Shown piece by piece: positions 57,781 to 64,000 of a DNA stretch of 64,000 nucleotides. The DNA is from a virus. The stretch covers positions 1 to 64,000 of IMG/VR virus record IMGVR_UViG_3300009448_000011; one strand, written 5' to 3'. Position numbers and translations under genes: made by a program. Under the pieces are notes generated by a model. That model saw nothing but the letters and a program-made list of their open reading frames with translations, did no database searches and was not told the DNA's origin. Numbering within the stretch: the first letter of the stretch is position 1; every line of letters begins with the position of its first letter.

Positions 57781-57810
57781 TTGACATACTAAGTTATGGT
57801 ATGTTATACT
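57781..57810 (+). promoter_or_regulatory. Sigma70-type promoter of the free-standing cassette
   Basis: TTGACA-18 nt-TATACT with extended TG. Confidence 0.7.
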
Positions 57811-57834
57811 TTAAAAAAGGAAAAAGAGAATAGA

Positions 57835-58419
57835 ATGAATTTAGAAACTTGTCAAAACTTAAGCTTGATAATAGAAAAAGACCAAACAATTGAAGTAATT
57901 GAAATTTGGGCAAAAGTATTATATATAAGAAGAAGCAAAGGAAGAAATTCATTTTATTCGAAGAAAGGAATAACAAAAGAAACAGAAGGAATATTTTGTA
58001 ATAACTTAAAAGTTTCAGAAAATTATAAAAGCCTTTTTAAAAAATACCACCCCGATTTAAACAAAGGAAAAGAAAGTTATGTTGACATTTCAAAAAACAT
58101 TAATAGATGGAAAAACTTATTACTTGAGAGTGGACAAAGAGAGTTTGATCAACAATTATATACAGAGCTTATTGAGTTTTGTGGACCACTCACATCCATT
58201 TTCACTATTGGAACCAGAGCAAGTTTTATCGCAAAACAAACGTGCGGATCTATCAACATCCCTCAATTTAGTTCTGAACAGGAATTTGTTGAGTGGAAAG
58301 CAGCGCCAAAGCAAGTTGCTTCCAGGCAAGCGTTCCTTGATAGCCAACTTACTAGAGCTCAAATCATCAAAAAGTACGGTAAATCCTACTATGATTATGA
58401 AAGAGATCTTCCTTTTTAA
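57835..58419 (+). CDS. HPD/J-domain-like protein, cassette copy 1 (ORF1)
   Basis: Start MNLETCQ aligns with paralog MDIQTAA; YKSLFKKYHPDLN; ends ERDLPF. Confidence 0.7.
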   Translation: MNLETCQNLSLIIEKDQTIEVIEIWAKVLYIRRSKGRNSFYSKKGITKETEGIFCNNLKVSENYKSLFKKYHPDLNKGKESYVDISKNINRWKNLLLESGQREFDQQLYTELIEFCGPLTSIFTIGTRASFIAKQTCGSINIPQFSSEQEFVEWKAAPKQVASRQAFLDSQLTRAQIIKKYGKSYYDYERDLPF

Positions 58420-58825
58420 TCCTGACCAGGACACTATAATACGTCCTTACGGATTAGAAAAAAATCAAATGTATAGTAATTATATGCCAACGGGCAAAGA
58501 AAGCAAAAATTATTTAAGGAGTTACATTAATAAAGCAGAATCTTTAGGGATCAAAGTCAAAGCTTTCAATTTTAACATTTGCGGTCCTGTTGTCACACAA
58601 GAAGCTATTGAATTCGCCAATTACATGAATATTGCAATTAAAGAATTAAATGGAGTGAAAATACAAATCAATGTATTCACTTTGGAACAATTAATCAAAG
58701 AATTAATGACAAATATAAATGGAAACAAATGGTTCATCACTTCGCAAGTTCCAAGTATATGCTGGGGAAAAGATCAGGTACAATATTTAATTTCAGAAAA
58801 AAAAGCTATATTAACAGAAAGTTAA
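58079..58825 (+). CDS. PD-(D/E)XK nuclease-like protein, cassette copy 1 (ORF2), overlapping ORF1 by 341 nt
   Basis: E..I..YI, KRADLS, LLELKS; ATG preceded by AAGGA; homologous over its full length to 62545..63276. Confidence 0.65.
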   Translation: MLTFQKTLIDGKTYYLRVDKESLINNYIQSLLSFVDHSHPFSLLEPEQVLSQNKRADLSTSLNLVLNRNLLSGKQRQSKLLPGKRSLIANLLELKSSKSTVNPTMIMKEIFLFNPDQDTIIRPYGLEKNQMYSNYMPTGKESKNYLRSYINKAESLGIKVKAFNFNICGPVVTQEAIEFANYMNIAIKELNGVKIQINVFTLEQLIKELMTNINGNKWFITSQVPSICWGKDQVQYLISEKKAILTES

Positions 58826-58909
58826 CGTTCTGATTCATCTATTCCTTCAGACTTATCAATTTTATTCATTTCGCCCCAAAGACCATCTAAATTTTCTTCA
58901 TCAGAACCC

Positions 58910-59383
58910 TCATTGTTCTGATGATTCTTTTTTTTTCTCAACCTTACTAAAGTCTTCAGTTACAGTATTAAAAATTTTAATAATAGCTTGTTTTTCTTGT
59001 AGAAACTTCATTAAGGCACTTGTTAGTGAAGTATTACATTCACTAACAACATGCATAGAATATTCAAGATAAAGATCATCAGGGTTCAAAGAACTAAGAG
59101 AAAGAATACCTTCAAGACCAGGCTGAACACTCATAATAATATTAATCAAAAAATCGGGGCTTATAAAAAGAGGAACTTCTATAGGCAAAACAATACGAAT
59201 TAAATGATTAGATAAAGGATAAATTTGAGAAAAACCGTACGAAGTTTCTCCTTCAATTAACCACCCTTTATCTTCTAAAAATTTAACATTACAAAATTCT
59301 AAATATTGAAATAATATTTTATTATTACGAATAGAAAGCATATATTCGTAAGGATTAAAATTAGGATTAGGAGTAGAAAGCAT
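58910..59383 (-). CDS. Hypothetical protein (may extend to 58822 via an A9 run)
   Basis: 157-aa ORF; the alternative frame after the A9 run encodes an acidic tail ending at 58822. Confidence 0.55.
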   Translation of the reverse strand: MLSTPNPNFNPYEYMLSIRNNKILFQYLEFCNVKFLEDKGWLIEGETSYGFSQIYPLSNHLIRIVLPIEVPLFISPDFLINIIMSVQPGLEGILSLSSLNPDDLYLEYSMHVVSECNTSLTSALMKFLQEKQAIIKIFNTVTEDFSKVEKKKESSEQ

Positions 59384-59406: not shown

Positions 59407-59438
59407 TTTTAAAAAAATTGACTTTTTGTTATTTTGAT

Positions 59439-60993
59439 TTACCTAAAATAGCAGAATGCCCCCATCAGAACGGTACTCCGTTTGGTGGCGGGATGAATGC
59501 GAGTGAGGCGACGATTGCCTGTCCTCCTTCCGAGATCTACCGATTGTCGGGATTGTCGGACAGGCATAAGGAGACGAACAAATTCATTGCTTATTCAATG
59601 TTTTATCTGAGTTTTTCTGGATAAAATTATGCTATCATAGTTTCATGATAGTTAGAGAAGCCAAGCTAAAATACGGTACAGCAGAGCAATATTCTGCCAT
59701 TGATAAAGCCATCCGAACAGCACAGTTCATTCGGAACAAAGCCGTTCGCTATTGGATGGACAATCAAGGTACGAGTAAAGCCGATCTGTACAGTATCTGC
59801 AAAGACTTGGCTAAAGAGTTTGACTTTGCTAAAAAGCTTAACTCCGCTGCTCGTCAGGCTAGTGCTGAACGTGCTTGGGTTGCTATCTCTAGCTTCTACA
59901 CCCGATGCAAAAAGCGGCTCACTCCAGTTGGGTCTCCCAACCATGGAAGTAAGACAAAACAAGGCGTAGGCAAGAAAGGTTTTCCAAAGTTTAAGAAACA
60001 TTGTCGTTCTGTTGAGTATAAGGTTTCAGGATGGAAACTATCGAAAGATTGCAAATCGATCGCATTCACTGATGGTTTTGAGATTGGAACATTATCGATA
60101 TTTTGCAACAATGAAACTCAAGAAGACTTGCATAGGCTGAAAATTAATCGTGTGCGGATCGTGCGGAGAGCAGACGGGTATTATGCCCAATTCTGTTTTG
60201 ATGCAGATCGTAAAGAGCAAGGGGAATATTCAGGCAATGTTGTCGGATTGGATTTAGGGTTGAAGTTTTTCACCAAAGACCAAAACGATAATGCTGTAAT
60301 ATATCCACAGTTCTTGAGAAAGGCCCAGATGCAACTCAAGAAAACTCAACGTCGATTAAGCAAGAAATTTGTGAAGGGTGCCAAACCCCAATCAAACAAC
60401 TACCACAAGGCGCAAAAACAACTAGGAAGAATTCATCTCAAAATTCAACGCCAGCGAAAAGATTGGGCGATAAAAGCCGCCCGAAACGTAGTGATATCTA
60501 ACGATGTCGTGGTGTATGAAAATTTGAAGATTGCGAACATGGTCAAAAATCATCATTTGGCTAAGTCAATTTCCGATGCTGGTTGGTATCAATACACTCA
60601 ATGGCTGGACTACTATGGCAAGATTTGGGATAAAGCAGTTGTGGCAGTATCGCCAAACTATACGTCTCAAGATTGCTCTAATTGCGGTCATCGAGTGAAA
60701 AAGTCTCTTAGTACCAGAACGCACTCATGCCCCAACTGCAAAATTGAAATTTGTCGCGATACGAATGCGGCTTTGAATATCTTGCACAAGGGATTGAACA
60801 TTCTTGGTGTTGAGTGGGACAAAAACAGTACTTCTGGGCAAGAAGGATCTGCCTCTGAGAATGAGGGAAAGCGCGGGGAGAGATGTACCTCTACAGTCGA
60901 TGAGTAATTAAAGACTGCAAGTAATTCTCTGTGAACCGCGAATAAGAATCCCCCGCTATATCGGTACTTCGATTAGCGGCGGGAGTATGTCAA
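59439..60993 (+). mobile_element. IS200/IS605-family (IS1341-like, TnpB-only) element
   Basis: Higher GC than flanks; follows TTGAT (59434-59438); left-end hairpin at about 59454-59500; right-end hairpin ending ...GGGAGTATGTCAA; no tnpA. Confidence 0.8.
59645..60907 (+). CDS. tnpB: TnpB RNA-guided endonuclease
   Basis: GLDLG (RuvC-I), VYENL (RuvC-II), TSQDCSNCG..CPNC Zn finger, RDTNAALN (RuvC-III) all intact. Confidence 0.95.
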   Translation: MIVREAKLKYGTAEQYSAIDKAIRTAQFIRNKAVRYWMDNQGTSKADLYSICKDLAKEFDFAKKLNSAARQASAERAWVAISSFYTRCKKRLTPVGSPNHGSKTKQGVGKKGFPKFKKHCRSVEYKVSGWKLSKDCKSIAFTDGFEIGTLSIFCNNETQEDLHRLKINRVRIVRRADGYYAQFCFDADRKEQGEYSGNVVGLDLGLKFFTKDQNDNAVIYPQFLRKAQMQLKKTQRRLSKKFVKGAKPQSNNYHKAQKQLGRIHLKIQRQRKDWAIKAARNVVISNDVVVYENLKIANMVKNHHLAKSISDAGWYQYTQWLDYYGKIWDKAVVAVSPNYTSQDCSNCGHRVKKSLSTRTHSCPNCKIEICRDTNAALNILHKGLNILGVEWDKNSTSGQEGSASENEGKRGERCTSTVDE

Positions 60994-61587: not shown

Positions 61588-62190
61588 TCATTTAGCGGCC
61601 CAACTAGTACCCAATTTACATTCTGCTTTAGAAGGAAAATCAGGCACTAATTTATGTAATAATTCATCCATTGCTTTTTTCATTCCTAATTCTTGTGCAG
61701 CAGCATATTCATAAGAAATATCTTGAAATTTATATTCAGGAATATAAACTTCCCCATCTTTTCTTACATTTACTACTTCACCTTGTCCAGGGATATAAGT
61801 AATACATTCATCATGAACTAAGCCTACGATATAGCCTGGAGAAGAATGTTGTTTATACTTAGTATTAAGCTGAGTAAAAAACTGATCGATATAATGTGCG
61901 GCGCGTTTTGTCATAATACTAGAAAGGCCTTGTATAATGGTATTACAACCTTTACGCATAGTAGCGCCATCATTTTCTATTCCGTGAGCATTACCTTCGC
62001 CAACGAAATAGCGTCTATTTGTTATAGGACATTGTACCCATTTTTGATATCTAGCCAAAGAACTAGTATTATCAATATAGACTTGCAATTCTGGAAATAA
62101 ATTAAAATAGTTTTTAAGAAGTTGTTCAGCAACCTTAATATCTATTTGAAGAGCGGTAGAAATTCTATTAGCACTTCCACCATAAATTAC
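61588..62190 (-). CDS. polA: Family A DNA polymerase, last exon
   Basis: VIYGGSA (end of motif B), YFNLFPEL, RRYF, NTIIQG, VHDEC (motif C), GTSW. Confidence 0.9.
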   Translation of the reverse strand, partial: VIYGGSANRISTALQIDIKVAEQLLKNYFNLFPELQVYIDNTSSLARYQKWVQCPITNRRYFVGEGNAHGIENDGATMRKGCNTIIQGLSSIMTKRAAHYIDQFFTQLNTKYKQHSSPGYIVGLVHDECITYIPGQGEVVNVRKDGEVYIPEYKFQDISYEYAAAQELGMKKAMDELLHKLVPDFPSKAECKLGTSWAAK

Positions 62191-62243
62191 CTTAAACCCT
62201 AAATTTTCATCTAGGTTTGGACTATACCTTTTAATGTAATTAT

Positions 62244-62273
62244 TTGACATACATTAAAACACCGTGTTATAAT
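62244..62273 (+). promoter_or_regulatory. Consensus sigma70 promoter antisense to the intron
   Basis: TTGACA-18 nt-TATAAT with extended TG; overlaps intron P8 and P3'. Confidence 0.8.
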
Positions 62274-62300
62274 TAGTATAACAAAGAAACATTTTAGATA

Positions 62301-62879
62301 ATGGACATACAAACAGCGGCGAATTTACAAGAATTAATAGAACAAGATCCTTTAATAGAATTAATCGAAATATGGGATAAAGTTTTATACATAAGAAAAG
62401 TAAAAGGCCGAGGAAGGTTTCATACTAAAAAAAATATTACTTTGTTAAAAAGTGGAATATACATCAATACAAAATATATACTCCAAGAATACAAAAGACT
62501 TCAAAAAAAATATCACCCTGATTTAAACAAAGGAAAAAAAAATTATGTTGAAATTTCAAAAAGCATTAATCAATGGAAAGACTTATTATTTGAATGTGAC
62601 GAAAGAGAACTCAATAGAACAGTATATCAGTTACTTATTACAACATGTGGACCGCTCACATCCATTTTCAGCATTGGAAAATCAGCAGACTTTATTTGGG
62701 GGCAAGAGGCCGGATTTCTCCACATCCCTAGATTTAATTCTGAACAGGAATTCAAGGAATGGAAAATTCCCTTTAGGAATTGGGCGGAAAAACTCGATGA
62801 TTGCCGATTGCCTAGAAGTAAAAGGAAGTTCTCAGATGTTGAGCACTACGGAGTTAATGAAAGAGATCTTCCTTTTTGA
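62301..62879 (+). CDS. HPD/J-domain-like protein, intron-borne cassette copy 2 (ORF1)
   Basis: IEIWDKVLYIRK, YKRLQKKYHPDLN, ends ERDLPF; paralog of 57835..58419. Confidence 0.7.
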   Translation: MDIQTAANLQELIEQDPLIELIEIWDKVLYIRKVKGRGRFHTKKNITLLKSGIYINTKYILQEYKRLQKKYHPDLNKGKKNYVEISKSINQWKDLLFECDERELNRTVYQLLITTCGPLTSIFSIGKSADFIWGQEAGFLHIPRFNSEQEFKEWKIPFRNWAEKLDDCRLPRSKRKFSDVEHYGVNERDLPF

Positions 62880-63276
62880 TGCAGCAGAAACTATTGTTCC
62901 TACTTATGATGTTTCTATGTCTGATTTTCAATCTCAATATTTTCCATTGGGGAAAGAAAGCAAGAATTATTTCAGAAGTTATGTGCAGGAAGCACTTAAT
63001 AGAGGCATCAAAGTGAAATCATTTACTTTTTGGTTTGCGGGCCCTCTAGTGTCTATTGAAGCCATCAAATTTTCTATTTATTGGAATCGCGTGATCAAAC
63101 AAATAGGTGGAATTCAAGTAGAAATCAAAGTTTTGTCTTTGGAACAATTAATTAATTACATCATTTCCAATATTCCAACAAAAAAATGGTATGTATTAAA
63201 TCAACATCCTTCTGTTTGTATGAGTAGAGCGCAGGTTGAAGCTCTAATAGAAGCTCAACTAGCCATTTTAGTATAA
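62545..63276 (+). CDS. PD-(D/E)XK nuclease-like protein, intron-borne cassette copy 2 (ORF2), candidate homing endonuclease
   Basis: ENSIEQYI, KRPDFS, CLEVKG; overlaps ORF1 by 335 nt. Confidence 0.65.
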   Translation: MLKFQKALINGKTYYLNVTKENSIEQYISYLLQHVDRSHPFSALENQQTLFGGKRPDFSTSLDLILNRNSRNGKFPLGIGRKNSMIADCLEVKGSSQMLSTTELMKEIFLFDAAETIVPTYDVSMSDFQSQYFPLGKESKNYFRSYVQEALNRGIKVKSFTFWFAGPLVSIEAIKFSIYWNRVIKQIGGIQVEIKVLSLEQLINYIISNIPTKKWYVLNQHPSVCMSRAQVEALIEAQLAILV

Positions 63277-63303
63277 TCTTTTAATATCTAATTATCTTTA
63301 AGT

Positions 63304-63336
63304 CGCCTTGTACATTAATGTATTTAGGCGTTTTTT
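63304..63336 (+). terminator. Intrinsic terminator of the antisense cassette
   Basis: CGCCT-TGTACATTAATGTATTT-AGGCG followed by TTTTTT, about 27 nt after the ORF2 stop. Confidence 0.7.
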
Positions 63337-63474
63337 ATTATGTATTCTTAAAAGTCTCTGAACCATTTTATAAACTTTCATTTATAGCTGGCTGCTGATT
63401 GACATATAGTATTTTTTAAACTACTTAGTGTTCCAGCAATTGAGTGTTTTTTACTTCACCATAATTTACAATTT

Positions 63475-63738
63475 AGTGAAGCCGCAGACTTTACCACGGT
63501 CTCTTCTTGTCCATCCATTCATATCTTTTTTAGCTTCTTTAATAACATTCCATTTAGGAACAGTAGCTAATTCAGGGTACATTCCAATAGCCGAAACTAC
63601 ATGAAGATCCCCGTCAGGATTAGGATATGTTTCTTTTGTATGTGGATTAATAAGAAAGGGATTATGCACTTCGGCATCGAAAAACGCATTAATCATTCTC
63701 TCTATTTTTGCTATACAAGCAATAGCTCTTACTTCTTG
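63475..63738 (-). CDS. polA: Family A DNA polymerase, internal exon (88 aa)
   Basis: QEVRAIA (end of motif A), GDLH, RDRGKVCGFT (start of motif B). Confidence 0.88.
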
Positions 63739-64000
63739 CAATATAGTTTTATTCTATACTGGCACTACTCTTCACCATCTCTATTAAGTACAGGTGTTTT
63801 ACGTCAGTGCTCTACTCTTGCCCAATTAATATAATAGAATAATAGTTCTAATTAATTTGCTAGATCGGGATTAGTTTACTATCACTTTCCCCGAATTGGT
63901 AAAATATTTTTTATACTATTTCTAATATAAACGACCCTTTTTTATTGTATTTATTTGTTTGACATTCAGCCATATAAGAGATACAATAAAAAAAAGACAA
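63739..64000 (-). mobile_element. Second group I intron in DNA polymerase motif A (3' part; 5' end outside the window)
   Basis: P AAUUCGGGGAA (63887-63897), Q AAUCCCGAUC (63863-63872), R GUAGAGCACUG (about 63804-63815), P3 UUUUAC/GUAAAA, P8 CACC/GGUG, S AAGAGUAGUGCC (63761-63772), P9 hairpin, terminal G before CAA GAA GTA AGA. Confidence 0.8.
63959..63987 (+). promoter_or_regulatory. Sigma70-type promoter antisense to the second intron
   Basis: TTGACA-17 nt-TACAAT inside a long intron hairpin, pointing out of the window. Confidence 0.55.

Follow-up and report, generated by a model that had tools for sequence, protein, structure and literature searches.

A self-contained antisense cassette with a candidate nuclease gene in a predicted group I intron of a phage DNA polymerase gene

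Mobile group I introns that carry an endonuclease gene interrupt the DNA polymerase genes of the phages SPO1 and Bastille. Here we analyse what is very probably a group I intron in the family A DNA polymerase gene of another phage, in IMG/VR record IMGVR_UViG_3300009448_000011, of which positions 1 to 64,000 (64,000 nucleotides; hereafter the window) were studied. Its cargo is a cassette of two genes that is read from the strand opposite to the polymerase and is furnished with promoter-like and terminator-like sequences. One polymerase intron has been described from cyanophages, that of Pf-WMP3, and here I-PfoP3I is encoded by an HNH gene on the sense strand (PMC3428280). Homing endonucleases fall into six structural families, which include the PD-(D/E)xK enzymes (I-Ssp6803I) and the EDxHD enzymes (I-Bth0305I) (PMC3384342, PMC3239194). 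Free-standing phage homing endonucleases and 'collaborative homing' are represented by the seg and mob genes of T4 and by F-CphI, which lies beside the cyanophage psbA intron (PMC2988022). Antisense homing endonuclease genes have been described for nuclear rDNA group I introns (PMC9548176), and antisense cargo goes unmentioned in a 2014 review of group I introns in bacteria (PMC3984707). These last two papers bear out the view taken in a preliminary description of this DNA, namely that phage introns normally carry a single sense-strand endonuclease gene and that antisense genes are known mainly from nuclear rDNA introns.

On the current view, a mobile group I intron originates through recombination of a free-standing endonuclease gene into an intron, at whose insertion site the gene product already cuts; to our knowledge, intermediate stages of such invasions are rarely seen. 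The genome considered here holds one free-standing copy of the cassette and three copies within intervening sequences, with their own promoters and terminators and at different places relative to the core, and thereby makes the invasion model directly testable.

The interrupted polymerase gene and its motif B intron

The window comprises the initial 64 kb of one contig of 105,687 bp, with a GC-content of ~29% and a phage-like gene layout. The polymerase is nearest (~30% identity) to the polymerases of Microcystis phage Ma-LMM01 and of Microcoleus and Pseudanabaena phages, and on this basis the genome is probably that of a cyanophage. The gene lies on the minus strand in three pieces, all of which are intact in translation. 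Exon 1 (genome 66884 to ~65575) ends in ...ISIDQHQ. Exon 2 (63738..63475) runs from the QEVR of motif A (QEVRAIA) to the RRDRGKVCGFT of motif B; its start at 63738 presumes that 63739 is the terminal G of the upstream intervening sequence. Exon 3 (62190..61588) opens with VIYGGSANR, the second half of motif B, continues to the stop codon, matches Pfam DNA_pol_A (E 8.7e-18) and is 32% identical to gp178 of Ma-LMM01.

Between exons 2 and 3 is a 1,284-nt sequence with the organization of an IA2-like group I intron (62191..63474, minus strand). The preliminary description had placed a complete set of group I core elements on this strand, and a script check of the pairings found each of them at the place assigned. 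In P1 the end of the 5' exon, CUUCACU (63481-63475), pairs at seven of seven positions with GGUGAAG (63460-63454), a guide strand twenty bases downstream of the exon end, and the last U of the exon is opposite G. P10 is formed by AUUAU (63465-63461) and the first bases of exon 3, GUAAU (62190-62186), with five of five pairs. The two guide strands are contiguous; a single internal guide sequence, AUUAUGGUGAAG (63454..63465, minus strand), therefore aligns both exons. P3 joins AAAACACU (63450-63443) to GGUGUUUU (62263-62256) through eight of eight pairs and P4 joins UGCUGG to UCAGCA through six of six; P6 and P6a are also present. P7 brings together G(A)GACU (63358-63353), with the usual bulged A, and AGUCC (62223-62219), P8 is made of AAUGUA and UACAUU (62255-62250 and 62238-62233), and P9 is the hairpin CCUAGAU-GAAA-AUUUAGG, with a GAAA loop. 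The intron terminates in G (62191) and its elements follow one another in canonical order. Folding of the cargo-less core to minimum free energy (MFE), with no constraints imposed, recovered P4, P5, P6, P8 and P9.

The core falls into two widely separated halves. The 5' half (63353..63450, minus strand) consists of the 5' strand of P3, P4, P5, P6/P6a, J6/7 and the 5' strand of P7 (GGUUCAGAGACU). The 3' half (62191..62263, minus strand) consists of P3' (62263-62256), P8 (62255-62233), J8/7 with the 3' strand of P7 (AAAAGGUAUAGUCC, 62232-62219), P9 (62215-62198) and the terminal G (62191). The Rfam model Intron_gpI (RF00028) matches the first half at 63438..63353 of the minus strand with 25.6 bits (E 7.6e-5 in a 231-base search), over model positions 60-147, which span P4-P6 and GGUUCAGAGACU. 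Its match to the second half, at 62320..62198 of the same strand, scores 12.3 bits (E 0.5) and spans AAGGUAUAGUCC and P9. The support that the preliminary description had looked for in group I models was thus obtained in part: both halves match in the right order and on the right strand, but below the gathering score.

Relatives of the core provide independent information. By BLAST the 5' half is ~74% identical to unannotated stretches of other phages, over ~89 nt in crAss-like phage cr116_1 and with similar identity in Enterococcus phage Toszka, and these stretches are intervening sequences of split genes. The relative in cr116_1 adjoins an annotated 'intron-encoded endonuclease'. That in Toszka interrupts the gene for DNA polymerase I and has an HNH gene on the sense strand. 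Removal of the intron would join GKVCGFT to VIYGGS, and this product aligns without insertion or deletion to GKIMNFKVIYGGS (the MNFKVIYGG region) of Ma-LMM01 gp178, in agreement with the earlier proposal that splicing restores motif B in frame (GFT|VIYGG). We consider it very probable that the intron is real, and on the strength of its sequence it is predicted to be self-splicing.

A distance of 1,089 nt separates the 5' strand of P7 (end 63353) from P3' (start 62263), and this interval is occupied by a unit read on the plus strand, much as had been described (about 1 kb of opposite-strand cargo between P7 and P3'). Introns of subgroup IA2 carry the helices P7.1 and P7.2 between the 5' strand of P7 and P3'. 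The cr116_1 relative has two hairpins at this position, which the 1,089-nt cargo fills in the intron studied here, where no counterparts of the two helices were defined; the insertion therefore appears to be peripheral and to leave the catalytic core unbroken. Its position would correspond to the usual place of P7.1/P7.2 in IA2 introns and would not be an abnormal break in J7/3.

Some further features of the gene deserve mention. The motif B intron and the intervening sequence of Toszka are near-identical in P1 and core, yet the former is sited at motif B and the latter at motif A; the 5' exon and guide read CUUCACU/GGUGAAG in the former and CUUCAGU/GCUGAAG in the latter. Near-identity of P1 and core at different motifs is what reverse splicing into a look-alike site (ectopic movement) would give. 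The reading frame of exon 3 is open upstream through the 3' end of the intron (62191-62250) to an ATG in the P8 loop (62250), and the last codons of the intron read LGFK, resembling the final CGFT of exon 2; the likeness could be accidental or the trace of a target site. In Ma-LMM01 the polymerase (157270-159635) is annotated as three open reading frames (ORFs), gp180 ('exonuclease'), the 51-aa gp179 and gp178 ('DNA polymerase'). There the coding sequence is divided between the NLQ motif and motif A, near, though not at, the first break of the present polymerase, and the division may reflect an unrecognised small intervening element or a true split gene.

The antisense unit and its overlapping genes

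The cargo of the motif B intron is one of four related cassettes in the genome, which we call copies A to D; it is copy B. Its promoter (62244-62273, plus strand) consists of TTGACA, an 18-nt spacer and TATAAT, with TG before the second hexamer, and matches the consensus at 12 of 12 positions. Among the 31 sigma70-like sites found between 57500 and 64000 it ranks first, and ranks two and three belong to copies A and C; a total of 31 is no more than chance would produce; it is the placement of the top three that counts. The -35 hexamer is situated in the P8 loop and P3' falls in the promoter spacer, so that promoter and ribozyme share bases. This accords with the perfect promoter reported earlier, including the position of its -35 element. 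The promoters of copies A and B have in common TTGACATAC and GTxTGTTATAxT, which suggests that promoter and cassette entered together, the ribozyme strands being fitted around the promoter.

At the other end of the unit is a hairpin, CGCCU...AGGCG, followed by T6 (63304-63336, plus strand), apparent both in the sequence and in its predicted fold. A simple scan of the region for terminators listed the terminator of copy A and omitted this hairpin. In the direction of the plus strand it ends upstream of the P4-P7 core, just as the preliminary description had it. All four copies end in a plus-strand hairpin and a U-rich run. Read on the minus strand, the hairpin of copy B is preceded by an A run and has no U run after it, and that of copy D likewise lacks the U run; the transcript of the host gene should therefore not stop at either. 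The situation is less clear for copy C, where a partly U-containing stretch follows the hairpin on the minus strand. From these signals we infer that the cassette is expressed from its own promoter on the plus strand.

Two ORFs make up the body of the cassette. ORF1 (62301-62879, plus strand; 192 aa) encodes an atypical J-domain protein, with the KYHPD motif, helices II-III and a variable C-terminal half ending in ...LPF. The Pfam DnaJ family (PF00226) matches ORF1 with E 3.1e-5 and a score of 24.4, which is under the cut-off of 27.8. Comparison of the ORF1 family profile to solved structures (PDB) produced 33 matches, every one a J domain, the best being E. coli DnaJ over helices II-III (E 2e-4); leads from the protein atlas were likewise all DnaJ (0.89). 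These matches uphold the J-domain-like character that had been ascribed to ORF1. The family is small, with 22 relatives in 5.8 billion proteins; KYHPD is invariant in the 20 members aligned, and all 20 relatives are full length. Two more distant relatives, P0039 (262 aa, E 6e-7, on a 21-kb JGI contig) and P0040 (308 aa, E 5e-5, on a 121-kb JGI contig), share with ORF1 an N-terminal LIEIW...KYKG block and KYHPD and differ in their C-terminal halves. Atypical J proteins may form a wider family.

ORF2 (62545-63276, plus strand; 243 aa) is a candidate nuclease of the PD-(D/E)xK fold with putative catalytic residues E21, D57 and E91-x-K93. It has no sequence match in Pfam, PHROGs or PDB (family profile against PDB chains, E up to 10), and an exhaustive profile search of 1.84 billion proteins yielded 18 representatives of the family. 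Its structure was modelled with AlphaFold2 (AF2) from 17 family sequences, with a predicted local distance difference test (pLDDT) of 90.2 and a predicted template modelling score (pTM) of 0.86; this model replaced an earlier one from five sequences, which had a pLDDT of 58 and gave only matches with Z < 5. When the model was aligned structurally to 48,161 representative chains, about 28 of the 32 best matches, judged from their titles, were PD-(D/E)xK nucleases, with Z of 5-7.8 and 102-148 residues aligned. At the top are AF1548 (Z 7.8), NucS (Z 7.7) and the FokI cleavage domain (Z 7.5, 134 residues aligned), followed by Can2 (Z 7.0), both subunits of R.BspD6I (Z 6.8-6.9) and Nt.BspD6I (Z 6.8-7.1); EcoT38I, LlaBIII, Card1, BstEII, PspGI, EcoRII, SgrAI, Shedu, MspJI, NucC and Avs come lower. 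A second structural comparison gave the same picture. Residues E21, D57 and E91-x-K93 are present in every full-length member of the family (copy A has RAD in place of RPD). Because the match list is nearly uniform in superfamily and these residues are conserved, the assignment of ORF2 to the PD-(D/E)xK fold is fairly safe, which supports what had been proposed for ORF2 as far as the fold is concerned. The structural match covers residues 4-222, so the protein is essentially a single domain of the cleavage type.

The preliminary description had presented the two genes as an operon. Both are present, but they are not in tandem: ORF2 lies in the +1 frame of ORF1, and the two share 335 nt (62545-62879, plus strand) in which the catalytic core of ORF2 is encoded. 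The figure of 335 nt is counted from the ATG of ORF2 in copy B; counted from the opening of the frame, the overlap measures 353-425 nt in the four copies. The same stretch codes for helix III of the J domain. Each of the four copies shows the overlap, with no internal stop in either coding frame and 15-19 stops in the third. To define the expectation, one protein was held fixed and its codons were resampled synonymously according to the codon usage of the genome, upon which the other frame acquired 6-11 stops on average. The resampled frame was free of stops in none of 5,000 trials, for every copy and in both directions (P < 1/5000). Codon-phase conservation within the overlap tracks ORF2. Both frames are held open by selection.

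Gene callers predict only the last 139-146 aa of ORF2 (139 aa in copy B, with a start at 62857), and the catalytic residues are consequently dropped. In three copies an ATG is found within a few codons of the start of the conserved region of ORF2, and in copy D the nearest is 23 codons upstream. A programmed frameshift that fuses ORF1 to ORF2 was considered and is not needed, since ATGs are available and the overlap is far longer than frameshift windows. With a length of 110-140 codons the overlap is an unusually long and well-supported case of dual coding, one in which current gene callers cut off the catalytic half of the nuclease.

Four copies of the cassette and their possible origin

A tblastn search located the four copies. 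Each is on the plus strand and runs antisense to the genes beside it; as paralogues they are 35-50% identical, and all eight ORFs are intact. Copy A (57781..58934; 49-51% identity to copy B by tblastn) is free-standing between two minus-strand genes. It comprises a promoter (57781-57810, 11 of 12 matches), ORF1 (57835-58419), ORF2 (58079-58825) and a hairpin with a T run (58898-58934), and no intron elements were found in its surroundings, which were checked and included in an Rfam search. The start listed for its ORF1, ATG 57796, falls inside the promoter (the -10 ends at 57810), and the homologous start is ATG 57835 (MNLETC...).

Copy C (64015-64984, promoter 63959-63987, plus strand) lies within the intervening sequence that splits motif A of the polymerase. 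This sequence begins, at its 3' end, with 63739..64000 (minus strand) and reaches on to ~65574-65577 of the genome; the break, ISIDQH(Q)|QEVR, is at the same site as the split in the Toszka polymerase (ADFS|QQEPR). Rfam and BLAST searches with the intervening sequence gave no group I support. Visual inspection and the MFE fold place group I-like elements in the 200 nt that precede exon 2, namely P2, P4/P5, P6, P7 enclosing P8, P9 and a terminal G (63739), and a group I intron is therefore probable here. Two 5' splice sites are available: splicing after CAU puts U at -1 and leaves motif A one residue short, and splicing after CAA gives motif A its right length with A at -1. Directly after exon 1, inside the same intervening sequence, is a sense-strand ORF of 117 aa (genome 65213-65563, minus strand) that matches PHROG 464 (E 5e-18), which we take to be a DUF4326-like protein. 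The motif A element would therefore carry cargo on both strands.

Copy D (~81508-82498, plus strand) is contained in a sequence that splits an AAA ATPase gene just after Walker B. Its intervening sequence has a weak Rfam match (16 bits, E 0.08, over a short sub-range), and it is 78-81% identical over ~60 nt (best E 9e-6) to regions in phages of Enterococcus and Staphylococcus that are either unannotated or associated with intron endonucleases. These matches support a group I intron as the residence of copy D. The three cores differ, and so does the place of the cassette, which is the P7.1/7.2 region for copy B and upstream of the P3-P9 core for copies C and D; separate invasions are the simplest account.

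Beyond this genome the cassette family is tiny and was found only in metagenome or phage contigs. Five of the 22 ORF1 relatives occur on one 282-kb contig, which also encodes four relatives of ORF2 and has at least five copies of the cassette. Searches with ORF1, ORF2 and alignments did not find the family in 185,579 prokaryote species genomes or in IMG/VR or JGI contigs. The cassette was also considered as a transposon; this was rejected because no terminal inverted or direct repeats are common to the four copies.

One further element in the neighbourhood is a TnpB/IS605-family gene (420 aa) at 59418-60907 of the window, a range that includes the upstream stretch. It has OrfB_IS605 and Cas12f1-like TNB domains (E ~1e-18) and is preceded by a GC-rich, structured stretch (59418-59640; GC 34-37%, against ~28% around it). 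The gene is placed between cassette A and the polymerase, in the replication region of the phage, and looks like a host-derived IS element.

A diverged, multi-copy nuclease family, three members of which sit within putative splicing elements at catalytic positions of essential genes (motifs A and B of the polymerase, and just after Walker B of the AAA ATPase), suggests a selfish, homing-type cassette that entered pre-existing group I introns. This is the explanation that we favour, with moderate confidence, and the four paralogues are the strongest argument for the proposed mobility. In a mixed infection, the nuclease would be made early from its own promoter and would cut the same conserved site in alleles that lack the cassette or the intron; recombinational repair would then copy intron and cassette into the cut genome, and splicing would keep the polymerase functional. 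The J domain of ORF1 would engage the host Hsp70 (DnaK), and the one-way terminator would halt plus-strand transcription ahead of an antisense passage through the P4-P7 core. Historically, a free-standing gene would have moved into introns by the route of 'collaborative homing' (PMC2988022).

By recruiting DnaK, ORF1 could help the nuclease to fold, to be assembled or to be released, or it could act on the host in a role of its own; prediction of a complex of ORF2 with ORF1 gave a score of 0.10 (mark 0.32), which is evidence neither way. A more specific possibility is chaperone-dependent homing with two components, in which a FokI-like ORF2 would be assembled, targeted or recycled by DnaK that ORF1 recruits, the cassette would invade group I introns in antisense, and convergent transcription could time or throttle splicing of the host gene. 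We hold this version only tentatively. If true, free-standing and intron-resident stages of such a system would stand side by side in one genome.

Several observations weigh against a homing-type cassette. Both Rfam matches to the motif B intron are under the gathering score of 50 and an Rfam search of 6 kb matched nothing, although weak scores are the expected behaviour when a 1.09-kb insert splits the model; the same insert, which separates P7 from P3', could hamper ribozyme folding. Known phage homing endonucleases are tightly repressed, in contrast to a strong constitutive promoter that opposes an essential gene. Homing usually leaves a presence/absence polymorphism as its signature, and scans of viral, metagenome and genome collections retrieved no intron-less or cassette-less allele. 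The individual structural matches of ORF2, at Z 7-8, are middling, and a Foldseek search of the model against PDB and BFVD returned nothing at E <= 0.001 (none < 0.06). No separate DNA-recognition domain that could supply site specificity is evident in ORF2.

This last point, together with a promoter of consensus strength that would fire early, is shared with the main rival, according to which the cassette, a nuclease with a DnaK-recruiting J protein, is an accessory weapon or takeover module directed at the DNA of the host, at rival phages or at defence systems, and resides in introns only because an insertion is harmless there. ORF2 resembles non-specific modules (FokI, Nt.BspD6I) and defence nucleases (Can2, Card1, Shedu, Avs) as much as it does site-specific enzymes, and a phage J-domain protein that manipulates DnaK exists in Rki of RB43. 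One copy would be enough for a weapon, however, and four diverged paralogues, of which three coincide exactly with catalytic motifs in essential genes, form the pattern of a homing family. We regard such a module as unlikely, though it deserves to be taken seriously.

Decay offers a further explanation. Many intron-borne endonuclease genes degenerate after fixation, and the cassettes could be relics in which promoter and ORFs persist, the products are inactive and the intron is kept since its precise loss is rare. Eight intact ORFs, an overlap that is stop-free in both frames where 6-11 stops would be expected, and the retention of catalytic residues and HPD motif in all copies and metagenomic relatives make this improbable. 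It is more improbable still that splicing does not occur and that the polymerase is made in pieces or is a pseudogene broken by cassettes. The separate ORFs of Ma-LMM01 (gp180/gp179/gp178), divided near the first break, and the frame of exon 3 that is open from ATG 62250 would be compatible with this; against it, the break is inside motif B, which one polypeptide must contribute, the full set of group I pairings, including the U.G pair, P10 and the terminal G, falls exactly at the in-frame junction, and other phages have split genes whose intervening sequences are homologous to the core. Finally, that ORF2 is only the 139-aa protein from 62857, with the overlap an accidental open frame and no nuclease encoded, is the least probable explanation of all: gene callers do predict the short form for most family members, but the overlap frame is open in all copies at P < 1/5000 each, has the codon-phase conservation of ORF2 and carries the E/D/ExK residues, and the confident fold needs residues 4-222 as one domain.

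Comparison with known systems

Measured against described elements, the new features of the cassette are its self-contained antisense expression unit, its nuclease family, its J-domain partner and its long overlap. Antisense cargo in a phage intron is apparently undescribed so far; neither a J-domain partner nor a phage intron with an antisense operon turned up in the literature, our coverage of which was incomplete and leaves such an absence unproven. If the homing-type interpretation is correct, the cassette would represent a new putative family of homing endonucleases and the first to be paired with a J-domain protein.

The closest parallels to the locus as a whole are the polymerase introns of Pf-WMP3, Toszka, SPO1 and Bastille. 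In common with these, a group I intron interrupts the family A polymerase gene of a phage at a catalytic motif and has an endonuclease-type gene inside, and with Toszka the P3-P7 core is closely similar. Those introns carry one sense-strand HNH gene that is expressed with or from the host transcript. Unlike them, the intron of copy B accommodates an antisense unit of promoter, two genes and terminator, a different nuclease fold and a putative J-domain partner.

With respect to fold, I-Ssp6803I of a cyanobacterial tRNA-fMet intron and the Vsr-like I-Bth0305I resemble ORF2 in that a restriction-enzyme-like fold is encoded in a group I intron. Both are the products of single sense-strand genes without a partner. 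The nearest folds to ORF2 are FokI, NucS and Nt.BspD6I; neither I-Ssp6803I nor I-Bth0305I appears among the 50 best structural matches of ORF2, although a kinship may exist. FokI and R.BspD6I-type modules are the nearest over almost the whole of ORF2 (133-145 residues aligned, Z 6.8-7.5), with an identity of only 10-15%. In enzymes of this type the cleavage module obtains its specificity from another domain or subunit.

For the orientation of the cargo the precedent lies with nuclear rDNA introns, in which the endonuclease gene is also opposite to the ribozyme strand and has its own expression, as is predicted for copy B. Those introns differ in being eukaryotic, with Pol II-type expression, spliceosomal introns, a His-Cys box fold and a single gene.

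The arrangement of the four copies, in turn, recalls the T4 seg and mob genes and F-CphI: a diverged, multi-copy endonuclease family has a free-standing copy between genes, and segD of T4 is likewise antisense to its neighbours. The route proposed here is also that of collaborative homing, in which a free-standing gene targets the insertion site of an intron and recombines into that intron. The T4 genes and F-CphI are single genes of the GIY-YIG or HNH type; in the present genome both stages coexist, and the intron residents have kept promoter and terminator.

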